Made by a program: the position numbers and the translations under genes. From Candidatus Saccharimonadales bacterium (GTDB lineage: Bacteria; Patescibacteriota; Saccharimonadia; Saccharimonadales; UBA4665): a stretch of 59,375 bases of DNA. The notes under the pieces were generated by a model. It was not told the origin of the DNA. It made no database searches and was given only the letters and a program-made list of their open reading frames with translations. How positions within the stretch are numbered: position 1 is the first letter of the stretch; every line of letters begins with the position of its first letter. Of the stretch, positions 6,976-59,125 are shown piece by piece. The DNA lies in contig JBDHUJ010000001.1 of assembly GCA_039809105.1 (NCBI GenBank), forward strand, positions 1-59,375, written 5' to 3'.

Positions 6976-7082
6976 GATATGAGCGGCAGCGAACGAGCCG
7001 AAAGGCGAGCTTTAGGGGAAGGGAGACTTATCCCGAATTCACTTCGGGATAAGTTGGGAGGGGCGAGCCCCTCCCTGAAGAG
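6976..7082 (+). repeat. Modular hairpin repeat, family B copy 2
   Basis: Same blocks as 1943-2160. Carries the nested hairpin GGGAGACTTATCCCGAATTCACTTCGGGATAAGTT. Confidence 0.9.
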
Positions 7083-7449: not shown

Positions 7450-7526
7450 GCACCTGTAGCTCAGCTGGATAGAGCGTTGGCTTGCGGAGCCAAAGGTCGT
7501 AGGTTCGAATCCTGCCAGGTGTACCA
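7450..7526 (+). tRNA. tRNA-Arg (anticodon GCG by manual fold), CCA encoded
   Basis: Acceptor GCACCTG/CAGGTGT, D arm GCTC..GAGC, anticodon stem TTGGC/GCCAA with loop TTGCGGA, T arm GTAGG-TTCGAAT-CCTGC, then ACCA. Confidence 0.88.
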
Positions 7527-9134
7527 TGATTGAATTAGAGCCTCGTAAGAGGCTTTTTTCATCTGTTGGGGCAAGGTTCCGACGCGGACTAACTCCGCTT
7601 CCATGGCTGCCTTAGTATCCACCACTGGCTGTAAGTATTTGATGGGCTTGATGAACACCTGACCGTCCATGTACACCAGCCGCTCGTTCAGCCCTGCTAG
7701 CACCGCTCGCTTGCGTTCGTCGCTGTCGCTCTCAAAGTCCTCTTTGGCATAGCGGGCGAAGTTAAAGAACTGGCGGGCACGTTCACGGGCTTGGCGGCTG
7801 CGTTCCTGCTGTTTAGTGCTGCTGGTCTGTGGGTCTTTGAGCTGCCGCTCTAGCTTGCTGCTCTTGGCGTCAAAAAACGCCTCGCTACAGCGTCCCGTGT
7901 AGAGCATCCGCTGTAAGCCGTATAGCTCAGTCTCAACGGCTTTTATAGCCTTACCTTGAGCCTTGTGCAGCTTCTCTAGGTCGGCTTCTTGCTCGTCGTT
8001 CCACTCGTTCAGATACTTACAGGCATACTGAAAGAAGTCGTCCATAATGGTGTACTTCTTGAGCTCGTCACGGATGAGCTTATTCATGGACGCTGGCTTG
8101 ATTTTCTGCTTATTAGAGCACGTGTAGTCCTTGCGGCGGTCTGTGCAGTAGCAGTACTCAAAGTATTGGCTCTCACCGTTCTTGTAGTGGCGTACCTTGC
8201 GGGCATAGGTGATTATGTAGCCACACTCGCCACACTCCACCAGCCCACGGTAAACATTGAAATAGTCGTACTCTGCCATCACGGTAGGGCGGTGGCGGTT
8301 ACTGACAGCTATCAGGCTCTGTACTCGGTCAAACTCCTCAGGCGTCACCATAGCGGGGTGGTTGCCGTGGTAGAGCTTGCCGCCGTAGATGAAGTCGGCT
8401 CGGTAAAACGGGTTATGAAACATGGCATACACGCCTGCCACGCTCAACGCCATGCCGCCCGTCTGCTTCCGCTGCACGGTCTTAAGCCCTAGCTCCTTGT
8501 CGGCTTTTCGGGCTATCTCGCTAGCGTTGTACATGCCGCTGAGCATCCAGTCCCACATTTTGCGGACTAACGCCCAGCGTTCAGGGTCGGCAATAATGAT
8601 TTTGCCTTGTAATGGGTCGTGGAAGTTTACATAACCGATGGGCGGTACGCCTGGGAACCAGCCCTTGTCAGCACGGCTGTACATACCACGGCGGACGTTC
8701 ACCATCAGCTCACGGACGTACTGGTTGCTCATGCTAGCCTCTACGCTAAAGATAATAGCGTTGTCAGATGGCAGGTAGACTTTATCGTTAGTGATGATGC
8801 ACTTAATCAGCCCGTCTTGTAAGAGCTGTTGTAGTACACCGCTTTCGGCTGGGTTGCGGGATAGGCGGTTAATCTGCCAGCAGATAATGGCGTCAATCTC
8901 GCCGCGGCGGATACGCTTAATCAGGCGGTCAAATTCTGGTCGGTTGCCTGGCGTTTTCGCCGATTTTTCCTCTTTGATGATATTAGCTTTTTTCAGCTTG
9001 ATGCCCAGGCTGGTGGCTTTCTTGCTCATGATGCCTACCTGGTCGCCGATGGACTGTACCTGCTTGCCTTTGTCCTCGGTGGATTTGCGGGCGTATAGCC
9101 CTGCGTTTAGTTCTCTGTAATTAACTTCGGTCAT
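7461..9134 (-). CDS. Large serine recombinase (integrase)
   Basis: N-terminal resolvase fold (GLYARKSTEDK, DAIICWQINRLSRN), recombinase domain, Cys-rich zinc ribbon (CGECGY...YCYCTDRRKDYTC) and a coiled-coil tail. The last ~30 codons are antisense to the tRNA terminator and tRNA-Arg. Confidence 0.9.
   Translation of the reverse strand: MTEVNYRELNAGLYARKSTEDKGKQVQSIGDQVGIMSKKATSLGIKLKKANIIKEEKSAKTPGNRPEFDRLIKRIRRGEIDAIICWQINRLSRNPAESGVLQQLLQDGLIKCIITNDKVYLPSDNAIIFSVEASMSNQYVRELMVNVRRGMYSRADKGWFPGVPPIGYVNFHDPLQGKIIIADPERWALVRKMWDWMLSGMYNASEIARKADKELGLKTVQRKQTGGMALSVAGVYAMFHNPFYRADFIYGGKLYHGNHPAMVTPEEFDRVQSLIAVSNRHRPTVMAEYDYFNVYRGLVECGECGYIITYARKVRHYKNGESQYFEYCYCTDRRKDYTCSNKQKIKPASMNKLIRDELKKYTIMDDFFQYACKYLNEWNDEQEADLEKLHKAQGKAIKAVETELYGLQRMLYTGRCSEAFFDAKSSKLERQLKDPQTSSTKQQERSRQARERARQFFNFARYAKEDFESDSDERKRAVLAGLNERLVYMDGQVFIKPIKYLQPVVDTKAAMEAELVRVGTLPQQMKKASYEALIQSWYTWQDSNLRPLAPQANALSS
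7539..7559 (+). terminator. Rho-independent terminator of tRNA-Arg
   Basis: AGCCTC-GTAA-GAGGCT followed by TTTTT. Confidence 0.75.
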
Positions 9135-17637: not shown

Positions 17638-17750
17638 GTATACCTTCAGTATACTACCCAAGGTATACATGTCAAGCATTTGGTAAAATAACAGAGGTAA
17701 GTTACAATATTAAAGCTCTAAGAACGTGTTCGGATGACCACTGACTGGGA

Positions 17751-17816
17751 AGAGCAACCCGAGACTCGCCTAGGCGAGCCCGGCGTGATGAGAAACCCGC
17801 TTGCGGGTGTCTCATG
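17751..17816 (+). repeat. Short core copy related to the family A structured repeat
   Basis: AGAGCAACCCGAGACTCGCCTAGGCGAGCCCGGCGTGATGAGAAACCC-gcttgc-GGGTGTCTCATG. Near-identical start to 59060-59125. Confidence 0.85.
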
Positions 17817-17821
17817 TCCGT

Positions 17822-17912
17822 GGAGAGGTCGCATAGTTGGTCTAGTGCGCTGCACTCGAAATGCAGTATACCGGCAACGGTATCGAGGGTTCGAATCCCT
17901 CCCTCTCCGCCA
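17822..17912 (+). tRNA. tRNA-Ser (anticodon CGA), long variable arm, CCA encoded
   Basis: Acceptor GGAGAGG/CCTCTCC, anticodon stem CTGCA/TGCAG with loop CTCGAAA, variable arm TATACCGGCAACGGTATC, T arm GAGGG-TTCGAAT-CCCTC. Confidence 0.9.
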
Positions 17913-19189: not shown

Positions 19190-20086
19190 GTGACGAACGT
19201 GGACGCTGAGAGTATTTCCGAGGAAAAGCGCCTTGGGCAGGTGGTGCAAACCGCTCGTCGGGCCGCGGGGTTGACCCAGCAGGCGCTCTGCCAGAAATCC
19301 GGTCTCAGCTACTCCACGCTTGCCAAGATAGAGCGCGGAGCTATAAAAGCGCCATCGGTGTTTACCATACAGCACATCGCACACACGCTTGGCATCAGCC
19401 TGGACCAGCTGCTACAAGACGTGCCGCGCCAGGCGCCGTCGGTGCCCCGTGCCGTGACCACGCAGCTGGACAAAAAGGTATCGAAGTCGGGCGTACGGTT
19501 CGTATTTTTCGATATGAACGGTTGCCTGGTGCGCTACGCCTACAGCGTGGCCGCCAAACTAGCCGAAGACGCCGGTGTGACACCAGATGTGGTGGAGTCC
19601 ATAGTCTGGCGATATGACGACGATATAAACCGCGGTACCGTTTCGATGGACGAATTCAACACCGCCCTGGCCGAGCGGCTGCACATGATGGTCGACTGGA
19701 ACCGCTACTACATAGAGGCGGTCGAGGCGGTCGAAGGCATGGCCGAGCTGTTGGTCTGGGCAGCCGAAAACTACAAGGTCGGCATTCTGACCAACACCGT
19801 ACCGGGTGTTGTCGCACCGATGCTCGAAAGCGGCCTCTTGCCTCGTGTGAGCTATGATGCCATCGTGCAGTCGTGCGAAGTCCACGCTATCAAACCGGAA
19901 CAGGCGATTTTCGAGGCTGCGGCTGCGGCCACCGGGATGGCGCCAGAGGAGATTCTGCTGGTAGATGATAACAGGGCGAATATATCGGCGGCGAGCAAGC
20001 TTGGCTGGCATGTGCTGAGTTTCGACCAGCTGCACCCCGAAGCTTCCATCGTCAGTATCAGCACTGCCCTGCAACCAGTGGATTAG
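19190..20086 (+). CDS. XRE-family HTH fused to a HAD-superfamily hydrolase domain
   Basis: N-terminal LGQVVQTARRAAGLTQQALCQKSGLSYSTLAKIERG. C-terminal part has FFDMNGCLV (DxDx motif variant), ILTNT and VDDN. Confidence 0.78.
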   Translation: MTNVDAESISEEKRLGQVVQTARRAAGLTQQALCQKSGLSYSTLAKIERGAIKAPSVFTIQHIAHTLGISLDQLLQDVPRQAPSVPRAVTTQLDKKVSKSGVRFVFFDMNGCLVRYAYSVAAKLAEDAGVTPDVVESIVWRYDDDINRGTVSMDEFNTALAERLHMMVDWNRYYIEAVEAVEGMAELLVWAAENYKVGILTNTVPGVVAPMLESGLLPRVSYDAIVQSCEVHAIKPEQAIFEAAAAATGMAPEEILLVDDNRANISAASKLGWHVLSFDQLHPEASIVSISTALQPVD

Positions 20087-20458
20087 TTCTCAGTCGGACA
20101 GTTCTCAGCCCTGAGGAAGAGCAGAGGCGTGAGAGCAGAGTTCTCAGAAAACCCCAGAAGCCACCTCAGACCAAAAGCACTGCGGTCGCCGCGGCGACCC
20201 ACACTCAACGCCCGGTCTGCAGTCCGGAAAGGTAGCCCGGCGAGACCACAGCGAAGCCAGTGGTCTCCCGAGCGTAGGGAAACCCACGGGTTTCCCTGTC
20301 AGACGAGGTTACGCCTACGTTGGAAGTCACCACCAACTTGCAACCGTCTTATCTGCTTCTCACTCATCCCCGTGCACAGAGTTCCAGTCAACGCTCCAGG
20401 CCAAGACCGTCCGGGCGTACTTAAGACTCGTCAGGCCAGCGGAAGCTGGGCTGACAAG
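20087..20458 (+). repeat. Family A structured repeat, copy 1 (about 370 nt; candidate ncRNA or complex MITE)
   Basis: Collinear with 44386-44726 and inverted 29725-30000. Conserved blocks are separated by covarying hairpins. Confidence 0.9.
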
Positions 20459-20473
20459 CCTGTAGTAAATCGC

Positions 20474-23128
20474 CTACACGCCAGCGAAGCGGTCGTGTTC
20501 GGCACGGAGGCGTTCGAGGTTGGCTTCGGCTTCTTTGAGCTGCTCTTTGGTTTCTTGCACCAGTGCTTTCGGTGCGTTTTTGACATACGACTCGTTCGCG
20601 AGCCTGCCCTGCAGCTGCGAAATGGAGCGTTCAGTATCGGCAATTTGCGCGGCCAGCTTGTCGGTGTAGGCCTGCAGCGTCGAAGTGTTTACTTCGAGCC
20701 AACAGCGGTACGGTGTGCTCGTTAGGAACAAGCCGGTACCGTCGCTGACTTCGGTGACGTCCGCCAACCCAGCCAGCCGCATCAGGAGTGTCCGGTTTTC
20801 TGTGATGAACGGCACGTCGGTATAGTACATGTGCGCATTCTTGAGGCCGAGGTCTTTTATGCGCGCCCGGGCTTCGGTGACGATGGCCTGGATGTCGGCG
20901 AACGCGGCAGCTTGCTTGCTGTCGGAACGGTGAATTTTGGGCCATTTCTCTGTTATGAGCAAGCTGTCGGTGTCTTTGTACAGCGTCTGCCATATAGTTT
21001 CGGTGACGAACGGCGCGAACGGGTGTGCGAGCTTGAGTACTTGCTCTAGAACGTAACCGAGCACTTCCCTGCTCTCTTGTCCTTTGCTTGCCTCGACGTA
21101 CCAGTCGGCCACATCGTCCCACACAAAGTGATACAGGTGTTCGTAGGCTTCACTGAAGCGGTATTCGTCCAGGAATTTGCTGATTGTCTTGGTAGATTGT
21201 TGTAACTCATGCAACACCCAATGGTCGGCAATGGTTTGTGGGTCGGGCGTGGTTCCAGGCTTGTACGCATCGCCCAATACGCCTTCGGTATAACGGGCGA
21301 TATTCCAAAGTTTATTGCAGAAGTTGCGGTTGGCTTCTACCTTGCCCCAACCCCAGTTCTGGTCGTTACCAGGAGTTACGCCCATTATGAGTGCCATGCG
21401 CAGGGCGTCGGTGCCGTATTTGGGTATGACATCGAGTGGGTCGATAATGCTTTCCGGGCGGCTCTTGCTCATCTTCTTACCGTCTTCGGCGCGAATGAGC
21501 CCATGTAGATACACTGTCTTGAACGGTACTTGGCCGGTAGCGTAGGTAGTGGAAAGAATCATACGGGCGACCCAGAAGAACAAAATGTCCCAACCTGTTT
21601 CAAGGACGTTAGTTGGGTGGTAAGCCTGGAAATCTGGACTTTTGGCTAGTAAATCCTCGAGCGACAAACTATAGTCTTCCGCCAAAGCGGGGTCGATAAG
21701 CGTGCTCCATGTCCAAAGCGCCGAACTAAACCAGGTGTCGAGCGTATCTGGGTCTTGTTCCCACTGGTTCCAACCTTCGGAATCGTCGTCTTTGGGCGGT
21801 TGGAGACCGACATACGTTTCAGTAGTACCATCGGTGTGGGTGCGGTACCAGGCCGGTATACGGTGGCCCCACCATATCTGACGGCTTATACACCAGTCAC
21901 GCAGGTTGTCTATCCAGTAGAAGTACGTTTTTTCAAACCGTTCGGGTACGAGCTGGATGTCCTTTTCGCGGATAACGTTCTGCAGCACTTCCTTCAGGGA
22001 GCGGTGCTCCCCTTTCCAGTCTACGGCCGGCTTGTTGACGTCTATGAACCACTGCAGGCGGATTTGGGGTTCTATGACCCCCTTCCCTCGCTCGTTGCGC
22101 GCAGTGTTGTGGATGTAGTTTTCGTCAATCTTTACTACCAAACCTTTTTCTGCCAGCTTACGGACGATTTTCGGTCGTACGGTCGCTATATCTTCGCCAG
22201 TAAATTCTCCCGCTATAGGCAGTAGCTTGCCGTGGAAATCTATAATCTGTTCTTTGTCGAGGTTATGCCGTTCGGCGATGTCGAAGTCTACATGGCTATG
22301 CCACGGAGTTATCGTCATAACACCGGTACCAAAGCTCGGGTCAATAGACTCGTCTTTGATGATGGTGGCGGTAACTGGTCCGTTAATCCACTCGGCCGTA
22401 AAAGTGTCGCCATGCTTGTATTTGGCGTAGCGCTTGTCGTCGGGGTGCATTACTACGTATTTGTCGCCGAATTTCGTTTCTGGCCGCGCTGTCCCAATCT
22501 CGAACGGCCCGTATTTCAAAGTATAGAACGTAGTAGTTTCTTCTTCGTACACCACTTCGTCATCAGAGACGTTGGTTTCGAGATTCGGGTCCCAGTTTAC
22601 AATCCGGTGGCCACGGTAAATAAGCCCGTCGTTGTACATCTTGGTAAATACTTCGCCCACGCTGCGTGTCAGAGCTGGGTCCAGCGTGTAGCGTAGGCGT
22701 GACCAGTCGCAGCTAGAACCCATGGCGCGCATTTGCCCGAGCATGGTTCCCCTGCTCTGGCCCACGAATTCACGCGTACGCTCCAGAAAGACTTCGCGCC
22801 CGATTTCATGTTTGTTTGTCCCCTCCTCTGCCAGCTTCTTTTCGATGATGGCATTTACGGCCAGCGCGGCATGGTCGGTCCCTGGCAACCACAAGACATC
22901 CTTGCCTTGCAACCGGTTGTAGCGGGCCATGATGTCCTGAAGTGTTAAGAAGAGCGCATGCCCGAGGCTCAGTGTACCGGTTTCGTTCGGTGGTGGCATG
23001 GCGATACTGAACCGCTCTTTTTTAGAGGTCGGGTCGGCCATGAATGCCCCGCTCTTTTCCCACAGCGCATAGATATCGCTTTCGTACTGTCCTGGTTCGT
23101 ATGTTTTCGGTAATTGCATCGTCTTCAT
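20474..23128 (-). CDS. valS: Valine--tRNA ligase
   Basis: 884 aa with PPPNETGTLSLGHA (HIGH), KMSKS, an editing domain and a C-terminal coiled coil. Confidence 0.97.
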   Translation of the reverse strand: MKTMQLPKTYEPGQYESDIYALWEKSGAFMADPTSKKERFSIAMPPPNETGTLSLGHALFLTLQDIMARYNRLQGKDVLWLPGTDHAALAVNAIIEKKLAEEGTNKHEIGREVFLERTREFVGQSRGTMLGQMRAMGSSCDWSRLRYTLDPALTRSVGEVFTKMYNDGLIYRGHRIVNWDPNLETNVSDDEVVYEEETTTFYTLKYGPFEIGTARPETKFGDKYVVMHPDDKRYAKYKHGDTFTAEWINGPVTATIIKDESIDPSFGTGVMTITPWHSHVDFDIAERHNLDKEQIIDFHGKLLPIAGEFTGEDIATVRPKIVRKLAEKGLVVKIDENYIHNTARNERGKGVIEPQIRLQWFIDVNKPAVDWKGEHRSLKEVLQNVIREKDIQLVPERFEKTYFYWIDNLRDWCISRQIWWGHRIPAWYRTHTDGTTETYVGLQPPKDDDSEGWNQWEQDPDTLDTWFSSALWTWSTLIDPALAEDYSLSLEDLLAKSPDFQAYHPTNVLETGWDILFFWVARMILSTTYATGQVPFKTVYLHGLIRAEDGKKMSKSRPESIIDPLDVIPKYGTDALRMALIMGVTPGNDQNWGWGKVEANRNFCNKLWNIARYTEGVLGDAYKPGTTPDPQTIADHWVLHELQQSTKTISKFLDEYRFSEAYEHLYHFVWDDVADWYVEASKGQESREVLGYVLEQVLKLAHPFAPFVTETIWQTLYKDTDSLLITEKWPKIHRSDSKQAAAFADIQAIVTEARARIKDLGLKNAHMYYTDVPFITENRTLLMRLAGLADVTEVSDGTGLFLTSTPYRCWLEVNTSTLQAYTDKLAAQIADTERSISQLQGRLANESYVKNAPKALVQETKEQLKEAEANLERLRAEHDRFAGV

Positions 23129-23165
23129 TGTATCACCTCTGTTATTTTGCGCAAAGCAAAGCCTC

Positions 23166-23177
23166 TTTCACGTGAAA
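23166..23177. promoter_or_regulatory. Perfect palindrome TTTCACGTGAAA (candidate operator)
   Basis: Lies just upstream of the -35 of the 23218 gene. Variants occur at 23896-23907 (TTTCATGTGAAA) and 25330-25341 (inside tsaD). Confidence 0.5.
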
Positions 23178-23180
23178 TTA

Positions 23181-23209
23181 TTGTAAAATAACTAAAAACG
23201 TGTTATAAT
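23181..23209 (+). promoter_or_regulatory. Sigma70-type promoter TTGTAA-17-TATAAT, leaderless geometry
   Basis: The -10 box ends 8 nt before ATG 23218. Confidence 0.6.
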
Positions 23210-23217
23210 GTAAAGAT

Positions 23218-23733
23218 ATGACAACTGCTGTCCTGCCAGCCCGTGCCGCACAAGAAGGGTATCGATACGAATCGGACATCCGGGATATGCTGGCTGTACA
23301 CCTCGGCTCCCCGCTGCCCACGATACTGGTCGAAGAGCAGGAGAAACTATTCCGAGTTACGCGATATGCGATTTCTGATGAAACAGAGGCGGAAATTGGC
23401 GTCGCGAGCGTCTTGGTTGATTCGTATAACCGTAAAGATAACTTCGCTAGGATACAGCTGTGCGTAGACCATAGGCAGGGGTATGGCAGTGCTATCTATG
23501 CCTGGGCAATCGGTAACGCGTTGGCGCGTGACCATGACTTTGTGAACGACCCGAACGGCAATCGCAATGCCTCGCTCAACACCTGGCGGCGACTGGTGCG
23601 GGCTGGGGTTGCGGAGCAGGTGAGGGCGACGCCCATGGGCTCCGAAGCTGTAGACATAGCACCGCGCAATCTGGGCGAGTTTATCGTCCCGCGCACGCTA
23701 TTCTCGCATACTGAGGTCAGGGGCGATAGGTAG
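23218..23733 (+). CDS. Hypothetical protein, GNAT-like motif, paralog of 23961..24545
   Basis: QLCVDHRQGYGSAIYAWAI and NTWRRLVRAGVAEQ parallel ICIGQDFQGHGYGKAIYRTLL and RMWQRLVRLGLAKQ in the neighbour. Confidence 0.55.
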   Translation: MTTAVLPARAAQEGYRYESDIRDMLAVHLGSPLPTILVEEQEKLFRVTRYAISDETEAEIGVASVLVDSYNRKDNFARIQLCVDHRQGYGSAIYAWAIGNALARDHDFVNDPNGNRNASLNTWRRLVRAGVAEQVRATPMGSEAVDIAPRNLGEFIVPRTLFSHTEVRGDR

Positions 23734-23779
23734 AGCGTACACGCTCTCTTTCGTTCCACTCACTCTGGTACTCTGACGA

Positions 23780-23848
23780 CGGAGTTCGGGGCTGGCCGCG
23801 ACGCCACCGGCGACAACGACGCTTTTAGGCTGGAACCCTTTTTGCGTG
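23780..23848 (-). pseudogene. Duplicated fragment of tsaD (internal 3' part)
   Basis: About 70 nt are near-identical to 24744-24812. It translates as FQPKSVVVAGGVAASPELRRQ versus TsaD FQPKSVVIAGGVAASPELRRQ. Confidence 0.75.
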
Positions 23849-23960
23849 TATGCCACATTTCCATCTCTATTAACTCGCTGCAAAACAGCTGCCGCTTTCA
23901 TGTGAAACATTGACAAAACACTTTCAAAATGCTAGTGTATACTCAGTATCTAAGAACAAA

Positions 23961-24545
23961 ATGATAGAAACACAAACCAAGCAACATTTTGCAGATTCAT
24001 CACTGACACCTGGGCAGCGGTACGCCGCCGGGGTTGCACAAATGCCACAGCCCGAAGCAGCTCAGTATGGTCCTGACTCGATGCCGGTGGGGGAGTACCT
24101 CGACAGTCTACTGGACCCGGAACATACGCTGCCTCACGTAGCTTTTGCAGAGGATAACGCAGCGGTTCACGCCGAGAACCCCACCATAGAGGGTGGCGTC
24201 GGATACAGGGTCGCCGATGAAACGGGTAGGCCACTCGGTGTATTCATTATGGGCGATGGGGAAGAGGTCGGTGCTAGCTCCGATGCAAACTACCTCAAAT
24301 GGGTCTGCATAGGGCAGGACTTTCAGGGGCACGGCTATGGCAAGGCGATTTATCGGACCTTGTTAGAGCAAGGTGCGGGTGCTGGGAAAACGCTAGTTTC
24401 TGACAGGCAGCTGTCTCATGACGGGATGCGTATGTGGCAGCGCTTAGTACGACTTGGCTTAGCGAAACAGACTGTCGAGTATCGCTACGACGCCGAAGGC
24501 GATGACTTTCTTGCCGATAGCTCAATCTTCAAGTCCGTTTTATAA
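23961..24545 (+). CDS. Hypothetical protein, GNAT-like motif, paralog of 23218..23733
   Basis: ATG 23961 is chosen because the track start at 23910 is the TTG of the -35 box TTGACA (23910-23915). Carries the QGHGYGKAIY motif. Confidence 0.6.
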   Translation: MIETQTKQHFADSSLTPGQRYAAGVAQMPQPEAAQYGPDSMPVGEYLDSLLDPEHTLPHVAFAEDNAAVHAENPTIEGGVGYRVADETGRPLGVFIMGDGEEVGASSDANYLKWVCIGQDFQGHGYGKAIYRTLLEQGAGAGKTLVSDRQLSHDGMRMWQRLVRLGLAKQTVEYRYDAEGDDFLADSSIFKSVL

Positions 24546-24547
24546 GG

Positions 24548-25741
24548 TCACATGCTCAGATTGGGCTGGATGTCGAGGGTATAGGGGTCGGCGGTGGGTT
24601 GGCCGAGTTTGGCTTTGAAGCAGGCAAGGGTGGCTATCATAGCACCGTTGTCGGTACAGAGTTTTAAGTCGGGGAAGGCGATGGGTATCGCTTGCCCTCC
24701 GGAGCCTTGGCGAAGGAGGGGGAGTCGTTCGGAGAGCTGGCGGCGGAGTTCGGGGCTGGCGGCGACGCCACCGGCTATAACGACAGATTTAGGCTGAAAC
24801 TCTTCGTACGCGAGCATTGTCTTGTCGACGACCGTTTCGACGGCTATGCGTTGGAAGCTGGCGGCTACATCGGCCTTCTGAGCTTCGGAGAGGCGCGCTG
24901 CGACGTCTTTGCTCGGAAAACTGAAGTCCTCGCCGATTATCTCCTGACACGTCCTTAGAACGGCTGTTTTTACGCCAGAGAAGCTGTAGTCGTAAGTAGG
25001 GGGTAGGGTTGAGGGCTTAGGGCTTAGTTCGTCCTGCTTATTGTTTATTGCTTGTTGCTCTCTTAGCGCTACCAGTGCTTCGCTCGGGGTTTTCATCTGG
25101 GCTTTAGGAAAGGTGAAGGCGTGGGGGTTGCCTTCGGTCGCCTTTTTGCCGACGCTAGGACCGCCGGGGTAGGGGAGGCCGAGTATTTTTGCGACTTTGT
25201 CGAAGGCTTCGCCGATGGCGTCGTCTGCTGTTTGGCCCAAAAGCGTGTAGTCGAAGTGGTCGCGGAACAGGGCTAGCTGGCTATGGCCGCCGCTGACTAT
25301 CAGGGCCAGCATAGGGAATTCCGGTGCGCTTTCACGTGAAACGTAGCCGGCAAGGGCAGGGGAATCGCCGATGGCGGTTATAAAGTTCGCATACACATGC
25401 GCCTCGACGTGGTTTATGGCATACAGCGGCTTCTGCTTTACGATAGCCAGCGTGCGGGCGGCCAGGACGCCGATAAGCAGGGAACCGCCCAGGCCCGCTC
25501 CATAGGTGACGGCAATTGCGTCGATATCGTCCCAGGTACAGCCGGCATCATCCAACGCCTGCTGTATAACGCCGTTCACGGCCTCTATGTGACTGCGAGC
25601 TGCCACCTCTGGCACCACCCCGCCGTACTGCACGTGCAAATCCATGCTGCTAGCCACCGCGTTGCTTAGCAGTTTGTATCCGTCTTCGACTACCGCTGCG
25701 GCGGTTTCGTCGCAGCTGCTTTCTATGCCCAGAACTTTCAT
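24548..25741 (-). CDS. tsaD: tRNA N6-adenosine threonylcarbamoyltransferase
   Basis: VLGIESSCDETAAAVV, GVVPEVAARSH and SGGHSQL motifs. At 397 aa it appears to have an extra segment around KTPSEALVALREQQAINNKQDELSPKPSTLPP. Confidence 0.95.
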   Translation of the reverse strand: MKVLGIESSCDETAAAVVEDGYKLLSNAVASSMDLHVQYGGVVPEVAARSHIEAVNGVIQQALDDAGCTWDDIDAIAVTYGAGLGGSLLIGVLAARTLAIVKQKPLYAINHVEAHVYANFITAIGDSPALAGYVSRESAPEFPMLALIVSGGHSQLALFRDHFDYTLLGQTADDAIGEAFDKVAKILGLPYPGGPSVGKKATEGNPHAFTFPKAQMKTPSEALVALREQQAINNKQDELSPKPSTLPPTYDYSFSGVKTAVLRTCQEIIGEDFSFPSKDVAARLSEAQKADVAASFQRIAVETVVDKTMLAYEEFQPKSVVIAGGVAASPELRRQLSERLPLLRQGSGGQAIPIAFPDLKLCTDNGAMIATLACFKAKLGQPTADPYTLDIQPNLSM

Positions 25742-25897
25742 ACCTGTTTAGCCTACCACACACAAGGGCAAAGTAAGTAGGGCAAAGGGCAAAGTTCATC
25801 TTCGATATTGGCTTCGTCCTGTGCGACGCCGGGCGTTGGTATCATCACGGACGAAAAAAGCGTTGCGGCCGGCGAATAGCCGGCTTCCCACAGACAT

Positions 25898-25976
25898 TCG
25901 GTCTGAAGACCGGAAAAGTAGCGCCCGAGGCGGAGCCCCGGCGAGCGTAGAAAAACCCTTTAGGGTTTGTCTGATG
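25898..25976 (+). repeat. Core-only copy of the family A repeat
   Basis: TCGGTCTGAAGACCGGAAAAGTAGCGCCCGAGGCGGAGCCCCGGCGAGCGTAGAAAAACCC-ttta-GGGTTTGTCTGATG parallels the central blocks of family A. Confidence 0.8.
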
Positions 25977-25985
25977 TATGCCTAA

Positions 25986-26019
25986 CTACTTCTTAAGACG
26001 CTTGCGTCTTAAGAAGTAG
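25986..26019. terminator. 15-bp perfect hairpin
   Basis: CTACTTCTTAAGACG-cttg-CGTCTTAAGAAGTAG overlaps the stop of the 604-aa ORF. Confidence 0.65.
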
Positions 26020-27823
26020 AGACTTCGCTGGCGTGCTCGGCCATCCAGCGGTTAATCTCGTGTATTACGGCCGGGTTCCAGGTCGCACTGCCCGGACTGT
26101 TGATGCCGAAGTAGCCGTCATCCATCTTGTACGAACCGATGTTGGTAAAGAAATTGCCGTCAGGGAACTTGTCTTGCAGGTGCAAGTACAGCTTCCACGA
26201 GTTATCACTGCTCAGGTGCTGGTTCTTTTCCTGCAGCAGCTCGATGAGTTCGCGCTGGTAGCCATGGCCGTTTTCGACCACCACATTCGTGTCGTACCCG
26301 TCGACTACGTTCGGGGAACCGAGGGTCTCTGTGTGTGCGGCGTTTGCTACGCCACCGCCAGCGTGGCCTTCCACGCCACCACTGCCACCACCACCGGAGC
26401 CACCGTTATCAGGACCTGCGCCACCACCGCCACCAGCGGGCGGGTTGCCGCCGCTACCGGCAGAAGGGGGTGTCTGGTCGTGTGGGCTCCACAAACCAAA
26501 GCCGTTGGTATGCTCCACAGCTTCGTACATGCCGTAAGTAGCTGCACCGGCCACGGCACCTATCGCGGTTATAGCAAGGGTGCGCTTAAAGTTGTTCTTG
26601 CGGTCGGTTTTGACACGTTCGCCCAAGACGGCGCGCAGGGCATTGCTATGCAGCTTGGCGGCGTGTTCTTCGTCGTGTTCGTCGGCGAGGGTGAAACGGT
26701 TGGACATCCGCTTCAGGGCCGCCTGGTCTTCTTCACGGCGCTCGTCGAACCGTATACGCTGGTCGACTTGGTTGCCGATGGCAGTAGCCCAAAGCGCACG
26801 GGTAGATTTAACGGCCACTCCTGCGCCGATGGCAGCTGGCAGTGCTACAGCACCACTGAAGGCGAGTAGGCCGTGGACACCCCTCTTGGCAATACTCGCA
26901 CCCAGACCTATAGCTACACCTGTACCGGCGGCTGCGCCGCGAGTGCCCCATTTGTGGTCGGCGAACCAGTTTATAAACCTGCTTTTGCGGGTGTCGCCTG
27001 CTTCCAGAATCGCCTTTTCGGCCAGAGAGAACGCCTGGTGTTCGTCCAGGAGTTTGGTAGTGCCCCGGGCGAGCATTTCCTGGTCGGTCTTGCCGGCGGC
27101 GCGCATCTGTTGCATTTCGGCCAGGGTCAGCTGGGTAAACAGCTCGTGATATTTTTTGTCCAGCTCGTCGTATTCTGCTTGCAACTTCTTATTCTTACTA
27201 CGGCGCTTGCTGACCGTACCGCGCAGCTGCGTACTCAGCTTCGCCAACTTGTTGCGCGCTTCTGCTACTTTGCCCCGCATCTCAACCATCTCTGGCGTAT
27301 CCTGCAGCTCCGCATCGTCTTCACCGGTATCATCGGGTTCGCCAGGGTTGTCGTCTTCCGTACCCGTAATCCCGTACTTTGCCCGGAGCCCTTCAAGCTT
27401 TGTTTCAAGTATCGATTGCCCTGAAGTCTCTGGTCGGTTATGTTTGCCACTAAAGTCTTTGTCGCCCATGGTCCACTTTTCGTGGCTCATGTTTTTTACG
27501 GATACGGACTTCAGTAAGTCGGCAAGCTCGTTGTATAACTCAGGGTGCACTGCAGGGTCAACATACCTTGCGACATGCGACTCGGCCTCTGTATCCAGCC
27601 CTTCGGTGGCTCGGGCCCGGGCTTCGTCGCGAGCCTTGCGGTGTGCACTCTTGAACGGGTCATCGTCGTCCGGTGTGGCGGCGATGGCATCATGGCCAGC
27701 CTGGGCGACTTGTGCTGCTTCTTCGGCACGATAGGTTTTTATGGCATCGATACTTAAGAAGTCCAGGTTTTCTGGCAAAGTAGCTTCGGGTGTTCGGTTG
27801 ATTACGGGAGCTTGCTGTTCCAT
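26009..27823 (-). CDS. Hypothetical 604-aa membrane protein (coiled-coil N-terminus, about 4 TM, Gly-rich linker, unknown C-terminal domain)
   Basis: Long ORF with a charged coiled-coil region, hydrophobic stretches (AAAGTGVAIGLGASIA, LLAFSGAVALPAAIGAGVAV, LAITAIGAVAGAATYG), a GGGGGAGPDNGGSGGGGSGG linker and a roughly 110-aa tail. Confidence 0.68.
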   Translation of the reverse strand: MEQQAPVINRTPEATLPENLDFLSIDAIKTYRAEEAAQVAQAGHDAIAATPDDDDPFKSAHRKARDEARARATEGLDTEAESHVARYVDPAVHPELYNELADLLKSVSVKNMSHEKWTMGDKDFSGKHNRPETSGQSILETKLEGLRAKYGITGTEDDNPGEPDDTGEDDAELQDTPEMVEMRGKVAEARNKLAKLSTQLRGTVSKRRSKNKKLQAEYDELDKKYHELFTQLTLAEMQQMRAAGKTDQEMLARGTTKLLDEHQAFSLAEKAILEAGDTRKSRFINWFADHKWGTRGAAAGTGVAIGLGASIAKRGVHGLLAFSGAVALPAAIGAGVAVKSTRALWATAIGNQVDQRIRFDERREEDQAALKRMSNRFTLADEHDEEHAAKLHSNALRAVLGERVKTDRKNNFKRTLAITAIGAVAGAATYGMYEAVEHTNGFGLWSPHDQTPPSAGSGGNPPAGGGGGAGPDNGGSGGGGSGGVEGHAGGGVANAAHTETLGSPNVVDGYDTNVVVENGHGYQRELIELLQEKNQHLSSDNSWKLYLHLQDKFPDGNFFTNIGSYKMDDGYFGINSPGSATWNPAVIHEINRWMAEHASEVSTS

Positions 27824-27926
27824 AATTGTTGTTGATTATAGCATACATAAGCGTTTAATGCAAGTATATTATTAAAAATTATAAGGGGTTAAAGAAGGAG
27901 ACAGAGTATAATACCATAGCATACCT

Positions 27927-28072
27927 ACCTGAATCACGAAACTAAAACAGAGGCAACCGTCATCTCGACCGCAGTGGAGAGATCTTCCCTTACAGAGGTG
28001 ATTATATGGAGGATTTCTCCACTTCGCTCCGCTTCGGTCGAAATGACAGAGGTGGGGTTTCGTGATTCAGGT
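27927..28072. mobile_element. MITE-like element (family D): 16-bp perfect TIR ACCTGAATCACGAAAC, flanking ATACCT direct repeat
   Basis: TIRs lie at 27927-27942 and 28057-28072. ATACCT occurs at 27921-27926 and 28073-28078. Inner palindrome GTCATCTCGACCGCAGTGGAGAGATC...GATTTCTCCACTTCGCTCCGCTTCGGTCGAAATGAC. Confidence 0.8.
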
Positions 28073-28385: not shown

Positions 28386-28544
28386 ATGTGTTCTTTCGCT
28401 GCTTTTCGTCGCCTTCCAGCTGGAGGTAACGGACCTGTCCCGTCTGGGGCTTGTAAGCAGTACCGCATTTCGCAGTACCCCATCCACCCCAGGGACGGCC
28501 GTGTCCTCCCAAACCCGAAAGGAGCCTACCATGGCTCGCATTGA
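28386..28544 (+). CDS. Candidate 52-aa ORF in the leader (MCSFAAFRRLPAGGNGPVPSGACKQYRISQYPIHPRDGRVLPNPKGAYHGSH)
   Basis: AAGGAG SD lies 6 nt before ATG 28386. The stop TGA 28542-28544 overlaps the start region of the next gene. Coding status is uncertain. Confidence 0.3.
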   Translation: MCSFAAFRRLPAGGNGPVPSGACKQYRISQYPIHPRDGRVLPNPKGAYHGSH

Positions 28545-29406
28545 CAGCACCGACGCTGCCCTCAATGCTCACACGGATCCGGTCCATGACCAGATTACGA
28601 GTGAGTACTCACGGGGCGTTCGCGCGTACCTCGATGGGGTGAACGACGAAGGGCTCAAGCCCTACGCCGCACTTCACCTCGCGACGGCTATCGCGGACGG
28701 CATCGTGAAGGCGGTCGAGTCGACGCACACCACCTCCGGCAAGGACCGTCTGCACTCCAGGCAGCCTCTCGCCCTGGGCGCCGGCACCGCTGTCTCCTCC
28801 GCGGAGTTCGATTCGCTGCAGGGATACGCCCAGCAGTTGAAGGGCCTCCCGGAGAAGAAGCGGATCGGTGCCGGCATCCTCCTCGGTCGTATCCTCGACG
28901 GTGAAGAAGATGACTCGGGTGTCGTGTACGACTACGATGACAAGGGAAACCTCGTCCTCGCGGCCAAGGTCGCCGACCTCGAGGTTCAGCTCGCCGATGC
29001 CAAGCGTGCGCTCGGCGCCGAGGAGAAGAAGTCGAAGGACCTCGACGGCCAGCTCAAGTTGGCCCTCAAGGGTACTGACGCCGAAATCTCCGCGGCATGG
29101 GCGCTGTTGTCTCCCGCCGAGAAGCTCGTCTTCAAGACGCCCATTCTGGGCATGCTTGAGGGGACAATCGCGGTCGACAAGGACGGCATCATCGGCTCCC
29201 ACAAGGGACTGGTGAACACCAACACCAAGCTCGTCGAGGAGCGGGACAGGCTGCAGCGAATCGCGGATTCCACCAAGGACTCCATCGAGGAGGTGGACCT
29301 CTACCCGACCCGCACGAGCAGGAAGCCGGTGAGCTACTTGATTCTCCACCGAGCTGGTGATCACCCGTTGAACGACGAGGCCAAGGCCGAGTACAAGGTC
29401 AGCTGA
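28531..29406 (+). CDS. Hypothetical coiled-coil protein with foreign (high-GC3) codon usage
   Basis: GAAAGGAG SD precedes ATG 28531. Leu is mostly CTC, every Lys codon I scanned is AAG, and GAG outnumbers GAA. This differs from argS/valS, which use CTG/TTG with frequent AAA and GAA. The long antisense shadow ORF 28609..29586 is typical of high GC3. Confidence 0.7.
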   Translation: MARIDSTDAALNAHTDPVHDQITSEYSRGVRAYLDGVNDEGLKPYAALHLATAIADGIVKAVESTHTTSGKDRLHSRQPLALGAGTAVSSAEFDSLQGYAQQLKGLPEKKRIGAGILLGRILDGEEDDSGVVYDYDDKGNLVLAAKVADLEVQLADAKRALGAEEKKSKDLDGQLKLALKGTDAEISAAWALLSPAEKLVFKTPILGMLEGTIAVDKDGIIGSHKGLVNTNTKLVEERDRLQRIADSTKDSIEEVDLYPTRTSRKPVSYLILHRAGDHPLNDEAKAEYKVS

Positions 29407-29724
29407 CCTCTGGTCATTCGCTGATTGACCCGCGCGGTCAACGACGACGCGGCCGGCGGGTCTCGACAAGCACTCTGAAAGGAGGCGGTGAGCATGGAAG
29501 TGCAAGTGCAAGTGATGTGAGGAACGGGTAGGACCGTGGGTGTGCGAGAATGCGCGATGTAGCTGGGTCCCCTTAACAGGAGACATTCAACCAACTATAT
29601 CGACGCATTCCGCACACCCACGCACTACCCCCTGAGTTCGTAATTCATAAAGAACGACTGTTTATAAACTTGGCTTTCAGTTCACCGGCACTGTCATCTC
29701 GACCAACGTGGAGAGATCTTCTTT

Positions 29725-30000
29725 ATCCTGTGTTTGTCACTCCAGCAGCAGCTGGCCTGACGAGTCCGAGCACGCCCGGACGGGTTTGGCTTGGTGCGTG
29801 AATGGATGTCCGTGCACGGGGATGAGTGAGAGGTCTGAAAGACGGTTCGGAATCGGCGGTGACTTCCAACGTAGGCGTATTCTCGTCCTACAGGGAAACC
29901 CTTCAGGGTTTCCCTACGGTCGCCGCGGCGACCTACCTTTCCGGACTGCAGACCGAAGGCCCGAGAAGGGCTCGCTATTTGCGAGCCACGGCGTTTTTGG
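29725..30000 (-). repeat. Family A structured repeat, copy 3 (inverted; lacks the GTTCTCAG end)
   Basis: Reverse complement aligns block by block with 20087-20458 and 44386-44726. Confidence 0.88.
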
Positions 30001-31547: not shown

Positions 31548-33020
31548 ATGGGTTTGCGAACGATTGTGAAAAAGCTGATTCCGCGTGGGCTGTTTCAGGC
31601 AGTGGAGCCACTTGGCCACCTCTGTGAGGCGGTGCTGTGGAACGTCGTATACGGCTTCCCGGGCCGGGGGATGAAAGTCATCGGCATAACCGGTACCAAT
31701 GGCAAAACTACGACCACATTTTTTGTACACCGCATGTTAACAGAGGCGGGTCTTAAAGTGGGGCTTATGAGCACGGTGGCGTACGGCGTCGGCAACGACA
31801 TCCGGCAACAGGTACAGCACATGACAACGGTCGACAGCCGGACGCTTATGAAGCGGCTGAAATGGATGAAAGAGCAGGGTGTCGAATGGGTGGTCATGGA
31901 AACTACCAGCCACGCACTGGCGCAGAACCGGGTGTGGGGCGTACCATACAGCGTGGCGGTCATGACGAACATCACGCACGAACACCTCGACTACCACAAG
32001 ACGTTCGAACGCTACGTGGCGGCCAAACAAAAAATGTTCAAGCTGGCTCAAAAGAACAAAAAAGGTCTGCAAATGGGAATCGCTAACGCCGACGACCAGA
32101 ACGGCGCGAGCTTTGCTGCGGAAACCGTGCACAGCATGCTGTACGGGATAGACGCCGGCGACGTGCAGGCCATAAACGTCCAGTTGAGCGCGACGGGCGT
32201 GGACTACACCGCGGTGGTAGGGCAGAGGGCAGAGGGCAGACCTGTCCGTCCTGTCGGCCAGACAGGCGGGGGGCAGAGTTCGTCTGGTGACAGTTCGGAA
32301 ACTGGTCATTCTGAGCAACGCGAAGAATCTCAGGAAACATATCAGATACACAGCAACATTCCGGGCAAGTTCAATGTATACAATACGCTGGCGGCGGTGT
32401 GCGTCGGCCGGGCCGTGGGACTCAGTAAAGAGCAGATAGAGCAGGGGATTGCCGCCCTGGAGGGCGTAGAGGGCCGTATGGCCACGATTGACGAAGGGCA
32501 GGCGTTTAGCGTCATCGTAGACTACGCGCACACGCCAGACAGCTTTGAGAAGCTTTTTAAGGACCTGCGGCCGGTCGTAAAGGGCAAGCTCATCGTGCTG
32601 TTCGGGTCTGCTGGGCGGCGCGACGAGGCCAAACGGGCAGTACAGGGCCGGTTGGCGGCCGAATACGCCGATGAGATTGTGGTAACCGAAGAAGACGACC
32701 GTGACATGGACGGCCAGGAAATTATGGAGCAGATTGCCACCGCAGCCGAAGAAGCCGGCAAGGTCCGCGAGCAGAACCTCTTCCTGGTGCATGACCGCAC
32801 CGAAGCAATCGCCTTCGCCCTCGGTCGGGCGCATGCCGCCGAAGATACGGTGTTGCTCCTGGGCAAAGGTCACGAAAAAGATATCTTACGTAACGGTCCA
32901 CGGGCGGCCGAACTCCGTCACTTGCAGCAGGACGACCACAACCCCGACCGCGTCGTAGAATTCCCCTGGGACGAAGTCGCCACTGCCCGCAAAGCCCTCC
33001 GCGCTAACCAAACCAAGTAA
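31548..33020 (+). CDS. murE: UDP-N-acetylmuramoyl-tripeptide synthetase (MurE-type Mur ligase) with a low-complexity insertion
   Basis: GITGTNGKTTTT P-loop, TSHAL, GKFNVYNTLAA and DYAHTPDS motifs. ATG 31548 lies 6 nt after TATACT (31536-31541). Atypical segment GQRAEGRPVRPVGQTGGGQSSSGDSSETGHSEQREESQET. Confidence 0.9.
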   Translation: MGLRTIVKKLIPRGLFQAVEPLGHLCEAVLWNVVYGFPGRGMKVIGITGTNGKTTTTFFVHRMLTEAGLKVGLMSTVAYGVGNDIRQQVQHMTTVDSRTLMKRLKWMKEQGVEWVVMETTSHALAQNRVWGVPYSVAVMTNITHEHLDYHKTFERYVAAKQKMFKLAQKNKKGLQMGIANADDQNGASFAAETVHSMLYGIDAGDVQAINVQLSATGVDYTAVVGQRAEGRPVRPVGQTGGGQSSSGDSSETGHSEQREESQETYQIHSNIPGKFNVYNTLAAVCVGRAVGLSKEQIEQGIAALEGVEGRMATIDEGQAFSVIVDYAHTPDSFEKLFKDLRPVVKGKLIVLFGSAGRRDEAKRAVQGRLAAEYADEIVVTEEDDRDMDGQEIMEQIATAAEEAGKVREQNLFLVHDRTEAIAFALGRAHAAEDTVLLLGKGHEKDILRNGPRAAELRHLQQDDHNPDRVVEFPWDEVATARKALRANQTK

Positions 33021-39000: not shown

Positions 39001-39223
39001 AGAAGTGTCCAAAACTCCCGGGGCAGGCTCCAGTCGCTCGGTGCGTTGTTGTGAAGCCCGACAACCGTTTTGACAACTAGGTCGCCGCGGCGACCGTCGG
39101 ACAGTCAAAACGGATCCTTCGGCTAACGCCTCGGACGAGTTGTCGGTTTCACGAACATCGCAGCCGGGCTCCTTCCGAATGCCCCGCAAGGAAGCTGTAT
39201 GGCCTGGCGGCCATTGTTAAATA

Positions 39224-44385: not shown

Positions 44386-44726
44386 GTTCTCAGTCGGATA
44401 GTTCTCAGTTCTCAGAAAAGCCCAGAAGCTACCACAAACCAAAAGCATTGCGGCTCGCGACTAGCGAGCCTGTCTCTGACTCCCGGTCTGCAGTCCGGAA
44501 GGGTAGCCCGGCTAGCCGCTGCAACGCAAAGCGGCTACCGAGCGTAGGGAAACCCGCGGGTTTCCCTGTCAGACTATGAACGTCCTACGCTGGAAGACAC
44601 ACGCAGTGTGGAGCCGTCTACAGGCTTCTTACTCATCCCCGTTCCCGGACATGCAGCCAACGCTCAGACCAAAAACGTCCGGGCGTACCCAGACTCGTCA
44701 GACCAGCGGAAGCTGGGATGACAAAC
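44386..44726 (+). repeat. Family A structured repeat, copy 2 (about 340 nt)
   Basis: Collinear with 20087-20458, with compensatory differences in several stems. Confidence 0.9.
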
Positions 44727-55363: not shown

Positions 55364-55423
55364 CTTCAGGGAGGGGCTCGCCCTCCCAGCCCTAAAGCTC
55401 GGCTTTCGCCTCGTTCGCTGGCG
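55364..55423 (-). repeat. Modular hairpin repeat, family B copy 3 (minimal form, inverted)
   Basis: The reverse complement reads ATGAGCGCCAGCGAACGAGGCGAAAGCCGAGCTTTAGGGCTGGGAGGGCGAGCCCCTCCCTGAAG. Confidence 0.88.
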
Positions 55424-55634
55424 CTCATGATACGGAGGTGCATGAAGGGGTGCGGCTATGCCGGGCTCCTAGAAAAGGGCTCCTAGAAAAGATATAAAGT
55501 AGTTCATTTGTAATCGCTGCATGTTTTGCACAGATATATCTAAAATGTGACGGAATATGTGTACTTTGGGCTTGCATGCAGCAAAAGTTATTGTTAGAGT
55601 TTAGCGTAAGGGTAATAAAGTAACCGGAAAAAAT

Positions 55635-59053: not shown

Positions 59054-59059
59054 GGGAAA

Positions 59060-59125
59060 AGAGCAGCCCGAGACTCGCCTAGGCGAGCCCGGCGCGATGA
59101 GAAAAACCGTAGGTTTGTCTTATTG
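59060..59125 (+). repeat. Short core copy related to the family A repeat
   Basis: AGAGCAGCCCGAGACTCGCCTAGGCGAGCCCGGCGCGATGAGAAAAACC... parallels 17751-17816. Confidence 0.85.

Follow-up and report, generated by a model that had tools for sequence, protein, structure and literature searches.

Family A in the Window

The window (the whole stretch of 59,375 nucleotides analyzed here) carries genes for housekeeping proteins, for a serine recombinase, and for two-component regulators, and four of its intergenic spaces hold copies of a structured repeat, Family A. Three long copies had been recognized by a sequence-only reading, and we locate them at 20086–20457 (+, A1), 44386–44724 (+, A2), and 29734 to ~30000 (−, A3); a three-way alignment of ~330 nt contains all of the shared blocks which that reading had listed. 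The box said to be repeated three times at one end, GTTCTCAG, is present three times in A1 and three times in A2, while A3, described as missing one end, is indeed without it. All six occurrences of GTTCTCAG in the window fall in A1 or A2 (chance expectation 1.6), and GGTCTGCAGTCCGGAA occurs exactly three times (0.5 expected when up to three mismatches are allowed). A repeat scan and closer reading revealed a fourth copy, a short variant at 25860–26024 (+), which has only the 5′ half in common with the long copies and carries a different end hairpin. The copies and their parts are as follows, with scores from R1, a covariance model built on the shared core.

20086–20147 (+): A1 end module with three GTTCTCAG boxes at 20086–93, 20101–08, and 20140–47; a 31-nt insert separates boxes 2 and 3
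20148–20183 (+): A1 leader, AAAACCCCAGAAGCCACC..ACCAAAAGC, C/A-rich and without supported pairing
20184–20199 (+): A1 hairpin P1, GGTCGCC-GC-GGCGACC, free in sequence with pairing always kept
20206–20299 (+): A1 conserved core (R1 score 78.5 bits), comprising Ha 20213–20226, joiner GGAAAGGUAG, Hb 20235–20273, joiner CGUAG, and Hc 20276–20297
20300–20429 (+): A1 3′ domain, found in the long form only and mostly invariant, with conserved blocks GCCUACGUUGGAAG, CUCACUCAUCCCCGU, and GUCCGGGCGUAC
20430–20457 (+): A1 terminal hairpin, GUCAGGCCAGC-GGAA-GCUGGGCUGAC, then AA
25860–26024 (+): fourth copy, short form (R1 score 83.6 bits), antisense, with the TsaD gene on one side and a 604-aa gene on the other; P1 25867–25885, core 25892–25974, terminal palindrome 25986–26019
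29672–29726 (−): accessory module attached to A3 at its 3′ end, AAGAAGATCTCTCCAC..GGTGAACTGAAAGCC
29734–30000 (−): A3, long copy without end module, antisense between two + strand genes; P1 29969–29987, core 29890–29962, terminal hairpin 29736–29761
44386–44724 (+): A2, full long copy flanked by a cupin gene and a response-regulator gene; end module 44386–44415, P1 44452–44470, core 44477–44569, terminal hairpin 44697–44722

Every copy is intergenic, in keeping with the position first described, and the ORFs that overlap copies are spurious as judged by homologue search and codon model, which bears out the view that the element has no coding character. A 325-aa ORF beside A3 (28609–29586, −) has no homologue among 5.8 billion proteins and is rejected by the codon model; being spurious, it was dropped as a synteny anchor. 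The real gene on the opposite strand lies at 28501–29406 (+) and matches a 299-aa gene of the Candidatus Saccharibacteria metagenome-assembled genome (MAG) CAZEMC.

The window also contains at least four further families of intergenic repeats, mostly palindromic (1813–1922/34510–34620; 1975–2035, 7006–7066, 6979–7017, and 55390–55428; 45486–45609/46741–46802; 27925–28070). One of these pairs brackets the histidine-kinase gene, and the repeat at 27925–28070 is MITE-like, having inverted ends of its own and containing the A3-adjoining module twice. The hairpin GGTCGCCGCGGCGACC occurs at 20184–20199, 29918–29933, and 39080–39095, forming P1 of A1 and Hb of A3 and lying, at the third position, within an unrelated structured repeat after groEL, which indicates that hairpin modules are exchanged between positions and families. 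A 26-nt repeat, GTCATTCTGAGCAA[A/C]GCGAAGAATCT, at 32305–32330 and 49658–49683 (96% identical) sits inside the unrelated genes for a Mur ligase and arginyl-tRNA synthetase, in frame in both (HSEQ[R/S]EES), and looks like an intragenic repeat insertion. Separately, the large serine recombinase gene (7461–9134, −) abuts a tRNA (7450–7523), and a 46-nt repeat (96% identical) is found beside a second tRNA (17822–17909; region 17750–17909) and at 59059–59104; these features may mark an integrated element.

A Fixed Core with Exchangeable Modules

All forms of Family A have an ~85-nt core of three tandem stem-loops (Ha, GUAG-Hb, and GUAG-Hc), in the constant order Ha (CGGUC-UGMA-GWCCG), joiner GGAARRGUAG, Hb, joiner CGUAG, and Hc. 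While Hc is a hairpin of AGRRAAACCC and GGGUUUYYCU, Hb is free in both sequence and length, and many copies carry a further free-sequence hairpin, P1, upstream of the core. In the short form (~150–190 nt), which is scattered over several related genomes, the core is followed by GUCU..AUAGGAGAC and then by a free-sequence hairpin and GAG. In the long form (340 nt) the ~130-nt 3′ domain takes their place, and the element ends in GUCAG-CCAGC-GNRA-GCUGG-CUGAC-AA, and one copy (L020) is intermediate between the two.

The GTTCTCAG end module is an accessory restricted to this lineage and carried by 8/15 long copies. In A1 it represents the family's left terminal-inverted-repeat module, whose inverted counterpart stands at the far end of L004:4497–4975. 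This last is the sole complete copy, with 44-nt arms that are 77% complementary (terminal inverted repeats of 31–44 nt) and TA at its flanks; it also holds the accessory module of A3, placed between the core and the right inverted repeat. The module is likewise inverted at the far end in L013, which has the right inverted arm only, and the eight instances other than that of L004 each stand at one end only. In L015 the module occurs with an A1-type leader and other cargo, the core being missing (L015:2780–2841). No terminal inverted repeats were found on short forms, which show weak, subterminal similarity at most. With lengths of 150–480 bp, no ORF, multiple copies, and intergenic positions, Family A shares these basic traits with MITEs.

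Distribution among Saccharimonadales

A 23-nt pattern taken from the best-conserved block and searched for exact matches in one genome each of 185,579 species was found at 18 places, and 18/18 lie in two Candidatus Saccharibacteria MAGs (CAZEMC, 12; CAZHYW, 6). All 12 matches in CAZEMC are long forms, two of them syntenic with A1 and A2, and all six in CAZHYW are short forms of ~150 nt. The CAZEMC genome (~1.1 Mb) carries at least 13 copies; the window carries four. A two-block pattern matched eight metagenome loci, all with short or intermediate forms, and had no match in a scan of viral contigs, and BLAST against phage and plasmid collections returned nothing similar to the element. The covariance model R1 recovers 33 copies, some of them diverged and not detected by the patterns (for example, L014:3428–3600, just after groEL), so the family is broader than pattern searches show. 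Window and CAZEMC share 91% identity in TsaD, which places the window in a different species of the same group. Across these searches, Family A is confined to one clade of Saccharimonadales (Candidatus Saccharibacteria) from soil and rhizosphere. One assembled contig (L027; Logan SRR27308737, 7686 bp) is identical to the window over approximately 20275–27960 and ends inside A1 and at the repeat near 27956, which shows that the repeats break short-read assemblies.

Empty, Filled, and Inverted Sites

Syntenic sites in related genomes are variously empty, filled, or filled in the opposite orientation. We traced synteny through TsaD orthologues for the sites at valS, TsaD, and A3 and through RecR for the ybaB-recR spacer, and for each of four sites (valS/HAD, the spacer before TsaD, A3, and ybaB-recR) we find both empty and filled states among relatives. 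The convergent gap between valS and an HTH-HAD gene, which holds A1, measures 387 bp in the window and in CAZEMC (L028); in relatives it measures 137 bp with another repeat family inside (L030, SHNH01) or 9 bp (L032), and in L033 the two genes overlap. Upstream of TsaD, where the window has its short copy, CAZEMC has another repeat family, and L030 and L032 hold no copy. A3 and its accessory module are missing from the syntenic site of CAZEMC, a sister species. The ybaB-recR spacer is only 2–13 nt in four genomes, grows to ~190 nt where it holds a short form in + orientation (L023, L042/L043, and L003), and measures 191 nt where it holds a different paralogue in − orientation (L039–L041), even though the RecR proteins of these genomes and of L023 share 94% identity. 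Across these sites, spacers of 0–13 nt in relatives hold the element in element-bearing genomes. Short direct repeats occur at the ends of some copies: TA in L004 and, as 4-nt repeats at filled ybaB-recR sites, TAAC in L003 and TACT in L023; these are suggestive only, being too few and too short to exclude chance.

Sequence divergence among copies is uneven. Paralogues are 60–88% identical, whereas the orthologues of A1 in the window and in L011 are 99% identical. For A2, identity between the window copy and its L010 orthologue is just 69%, within flanks that are 91% identical, and the copies of L010 and L014 are 88% identical to each other. The copies are mosaics formed by recombination, and one orthologous copy has been replaced. 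We conclude that the elements are inserted DNA and that copies have been gained, lost, and replaced between species. They are not recent duplicates of a known MITE or IS end, an origin that would have undercut the original description: their identity as paralogues is too low (60–88%), and the phage, plasmid, and viral collections hold nothing similar.

A different repeat family, marked by GGTGAA, GGTAAACGG, and their complements (L030:12817–12953, L028:9746–10000, and L015:2650–2790), occupies in sister species the very spacers that hold Family A in the window. The Family A spacers are landing sites common to several repeat families.

Paired Changes in Four Hairpins

The hairpins of Family A differ in sequence between copies yet stay self-complementary, as the sequence-only reading had proposed, and the examples that it quoted hold up. 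Among 14 long copies, 14 pairs are changed on both sides, a number reached by 0/500 shuffles; the consensus fold leaves 94.1% of cells paired, as opposed to 26–44% when partners are slid. Compensatory changes are located in P1 (helix 1, both-side changes in 5/7 pairs), the base of Hb, Hc, and the terminal hairpin (helix 12, three such pairs). In the core alone, 93.9% of cells are paired across 32 distinct copies, and five pairs have double changes. The inner stems of Hb (GAGACCAC/GUGGUCUC, UAGCAUCC/GGAUGCUA, and UAGCCGCU/AGCGGCUA) are all perfect but could not be brought into common columns; the orthologues of A1 in the window and in L011 differ there by one compensatory exchange of A-U to G-C. 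The count of at least six helices fared less evenly. Four hairpins (P1, Hb, Hc, and terminal) have compensatory changes, while two long-range helices, predicted to close the 3′ domain onto Ha, show wobble changes only, and the middle helices of the 3′ domain are invariant across copies, so that their pairing is predicted only. The folding energy of A1 is −119.6 kcal/mol (z = −3.5).

The joiners are far more constant than the stems beside them. Nearly all of the 33 copies have GUAG in front of both Hb and Hc, a constancy that is partly circular, since the search patterns had demanded GTAG; in the diverged copy L014:3428–3600, AUAG and GUAA replace it. The AG of GUAG is predicted to be paired. 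Choosing a strand by counts of G.U versus A.C gave a mixed answer: terminal hairpins favor the + strand (17 G.U pairs on + and 5 on −), Hb favors the − strand (5 on + and 13 on −), and GNRA or GNA loops are commoner on the + strand.

Genomic Context and Candidate Enzymes

Placement relative to genes was assessed with genes called by the codon model that correctly rejects the spurious 325-aa ORF. Nineteen copies lie between codirectional genes (12 sense and 7 antisense), six between convergent genes, and one between divergent genes. Orientation with respect to neighboring genes shows no strand bias, and many copies begin 0–30 nt past a stop codon. Among the ORFs around 18 copies, no neighboring gene recurs. 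The position of the element is not conserved beyond close relatives, and its orientation flips. A scan limited to sigma-70-type consensus sequences found no promoter-like or terminator-like site on the element strand of A1 and A2.

An association with a transposase, RAYT, IscB, or TnpB gene, raised in the sequence-only reading, did not emerge: no such gene neighbors the copies and none lies in the window. More broadly, the window and ~450 kb of related loci contain no transposase of any kind and no autonomous insertion sequence with matching ends, and neither the window nor the gene tables of syntenic loci list a RAYT/Y1 transposase, TnpB, IscB, or reverse transcriptase.

Comparison with Known RNAs and Repeats

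We find no match between Family A and described families in Rfam, the literature searched, or sequence collections. The failure of the sequence-only reading to place the element among known RNAs agrees with Rfam at the gathering threshold, where tRNAs and one L10 leader were the sole matches to pass in the window and 28 loci. Individual searches of A1 and of a short copy against Rfam 15 at E ≤ 10 gave chance hits or none, in a test that covered RNase P, SRP, tmRNA, 6S, group I/II introns, self-cleaving ribozymes, riboswitches, T-box, HEARO, and IS605-orfB. A search of the literature on repeats, noncoding RNA, or MITEs of Saccharibacteria found nothing relevant. SRP RNA was considered because CCGGAA..GUAGCAAGCC resembles SRP domain IV and one copy lies in the dnaX-ybaB-recR neighborhood, where SRP RNA sits in some bacteria; it was ruled out by the lack of an Rfam SRP match, by different pairing, and by the empty ybaB-recR site of close relatives. 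A hammerhead was suggested by CUGAUAA in some short copies, which is not conserved, and a small ORF after AGGAG in the short form has an ATG that is not conserved. Response-regulator genes downstream of three copies raised the possibility of a cis-regulatory leader, which we rejected in view of other copies that are flanked by convergent genes or antisense. In one related locus (L007:2699–3085, −) we noted a sequence like the 5′ half of a tRNA, with a GTCGCCGCGGCGAC hairpin in place of the anticodon arm. A GIY-YIG nuclease ORF and an intact tRNA-Ala come next, and the tRNA-Ala is all that ARAGORN and Rfam report.

Family A resembles REP sequences in some respects. GTAG-tagged REPs and BIMEs are proposed substrates of RAYT/TnpA-REP tyrosine transposases, lie mainly between unidirectional and convergent ORFs, have stems with complementary subfamily changes and G.T pairs, and occur mostly as single units or inverted (head-head or tail-tail) dimers, head-to-tail dimers being rare (Di Nocera et al. 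2013, PMC3733652). Similarly, the Hb and Hc hairpins of Family A (14–40 nt) are preceded in nearly all copies by GUAG, which the search patterns had required, their stems change in complementary fashion among subfamilies with G.T pairs occurring, copies lie between codirectional and convergent genes downstream of coding regions, and, as in BIMEs, units are clustered with conserved linkers into a mosaic. In contrast to REPs, the two tagged hairpins of Family A are always head-to-tail, which REP families show rarely or not at all; the hairpins are part of a much larger fixed frame (Ha, 3′ domain, and terminal hairpin); copies number ~13 per ~1.1-Mb genome rather than hundreds; and the AG of GUAG is predicted to be paired, with no RAYT gene seen in the window or loci. 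Because the hairpins run head-to-tail in a large fixed frame, because copies are few, and because no RAYT gene is known here, we do not claim REP membership.

Other comparisons are similarly incomplete. Bacterial MITEs with a modular or RNA-folding body include pneumococcal BOX, enterobacterial ERIC, and Neisseria Correia elements. Like them, Family A is short, ORF-less, multicopy, intergenic, and present or absent between relatives, its modules are exchangeable, a stable fold is predicted when it is transcribed, and its complete copy has terminal inverted repeats and a possible TA duplication. Unlike them, Family A is missing one or both inverted repeats in most of its copies and both in the short forms, its paralogues are 60–88% identical rather than near-identical, and the interior is a multihelix structure of covarying stems and fixed joiners instead of one long hairpin formed from two ends. 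The omega RNAs of IscB and TnpB (Rfam HEARO and IS605-orfB) and gene-less IS200/IS605 derivatives resemble Family A as multicopy, multihelix noncoding modules of 150–350 nt with covarying stems that belong to mobile DNA; Family A differs in having no Rfam match, no adjoining nuclease or transposase gene, and insertion in either orientation at one site.

Discussion

Family A is probably a mobile, hairpin-dependent DNA repeat, non-autonomous, modular, and mobilized in trans. The sequence-only reading had left open whether it is a noncoding RNA or a complex non-autonomous element. Empty sites, both orientations, terminal inverted repeats, and mosaic copies favor the element, and the idea of a dedicated RNA gene is weakened by the lack of promoter or terminator and of strand bias and by the loss of synteny beyond close relatives. 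A mobile repeat fits better than an RNA gene because sites are empty in some relatives and refilled in either orientation in others, copies turn over at the species level and are mosaic, an inverted-repeat shell is present, and there is no neighboring gene, transcription signal, or strand bias; a stand-alone noncoding RNA gene is unlikely.

An enzyme encoded elsewhere in the genome probably moves the elements in trans. REP/RAYT and IS200/IS605-type systems act on hairpins in single-stranded DNA, and here too the folded single strand is probably the form that matters, which would explain why stems covary while joiners stay fixed. The inverted-repeat shell may add a further route of movement, like that of classical MITEs; the core may travel by a single-stranded-DNA (HUH-type) mechanism and the shell by a classical inverted-repeat mechanism. 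In a transcribed spacer the hairpins would fold in mRNA as well and may affect transcript ends, as a side effect. Several observations sit less easily with a mobile DNA repeat. The mobilizing enzyme is entirely inferred, both inverted repeats are present in one copy only and in no short form, the target-site duplications are weak, and the divergence among paralogues far exceeds that of a typical recent MITE burst. Moreover, helices that are kept while their sequence is free, beside fixed joiners, are more typical of functional RNA than of DNA hairpins recognized by protein, and GNRA tetraloops and GNA triloops favor one strand. Template-switch correction in palindromic DNA can yield paired changes without selection, and such correction of near-palindromes could mimic compensation here.

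A genuine family of structured noncoding RNA genes, multicopy and acting in trans or in cis, with the RNA fold selected and dispersal secondary, would account for covariation in four hairpins, the fixed unpaired joiners GGAARRGUAG and CGUAG, an architecture kept while the middle domain varies in length (short, intermediate in L020, and long), the compensatory A-U to G-C pair between orthologous copies of two species, the age of paralogues at 60–88% identity, and, on the + strand, the commoner GNRA/GNA loops and 17 as opposed to 5 G.U pairs in terminal hairpins. We nevertheless regard it as improbable, since A1 and A2 have no promoter or terminator in a sigma-70-type scan, codirectional contexts show no orientation bias (12 sense vs. 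7 antisense), sister genomes carry opposite orientations at one locus, close relatives have empty sites, Hb has more G.U pairs on the opposite strand, and the invariance of joiners is partly circular, having been demanded by the search patterns, with AUAG and GUAA found in L014:3428–3600. Roles as mRNA stabilizers, processing sites, or insulators have been proposed for REP, BOX, ERIC, and Correia repeats, and Family A could likewise be a host-serving element of 3′/5′ UTRs that spread by recombination and not by transposition. Such a role would suit copies that begin 0–30 nt after a stop codon, the codirectional and convergent placement with divergent sites rare, and very stable hairpins (A1, −119.6 kcal/mol, z = −3.5). 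However, seven copies are antisense to both neighbors, the ybaB-recR copy is inverted in one lineage, and insertion between overlapping or abutting genes requires a DNA insertion mechanism anyway, which makes this account about as unlikely as that of an RNA gene family.

There is a slim chance that the core is a functional RNA that partners an enzyme encoded elsewhere in these reduced genomes, as a guide-like or ribozyme-like mobile RNA module. If true, it would constitute a novel class, akin to omega and bridge RNAs, with the fold and not the DNA being propagated and selected. Family A might also be the remnant or trans-acting omega RNA scaffold of a TnpB/IscB nuclease, a gene-less IS200/IS605 derivative that keeps the RNA. 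Its size (150–340 nt), multihelix fold with covarying stems, conserved 3′ hairpin followed by variable sequence, and multicopy intergenic nature fit, but HEARO and IS605-orfB do not match even at E ≤ 10, tnpB, iscB, and tnpA are absent beside all 33 copies and elsewhere in the window, and insertion in either orientation at one site contrasts with the strand- and target-specific insertion of IS200/IS605, so we consider this very unlikely. Least probable of all is an element copied through RNA (SINE-like, an ORF-less group II intron derivative, or retron-like) whose fold is recognized by a reverse transcriptase: the fold appears to be selected on one strand and two copies are flanked by short direct repeats of variable sequence, yet Family A matches no group II intron or retron family, has no internal promoter, and has no reverse transcriptase in the window or loci, and the terminal inverted repeats of L004 point to a DNA mechanism.

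If Family A is a mobile DNA repeat, it belongs to a known kind, structured intergenic non-autonomous repeats, in which its architecture and host group are new. It also holds a caution for the discovery of noncoding RNAs: covariation, a multihelix fold, lack of an ORF, and intergenic location were all passed by a sequence that behaves as inserted DNA. Bacteria of the Candidate Phyla Radiation, such as Saccharibacteria, are regarded as streamlined and repeat-poor, yet here one elaborate structured repeat is present 13 or more times in a genome of ~1.1 Mb, in competition with several other repeat families for the same spacers. The turnover of Family A between sister species indicates that mobile DNA is active in this lineage. 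We know of no enzyme that moves hairpin-rich repeats in these bacteria, and Family A offers a defined substrate with which to find it.
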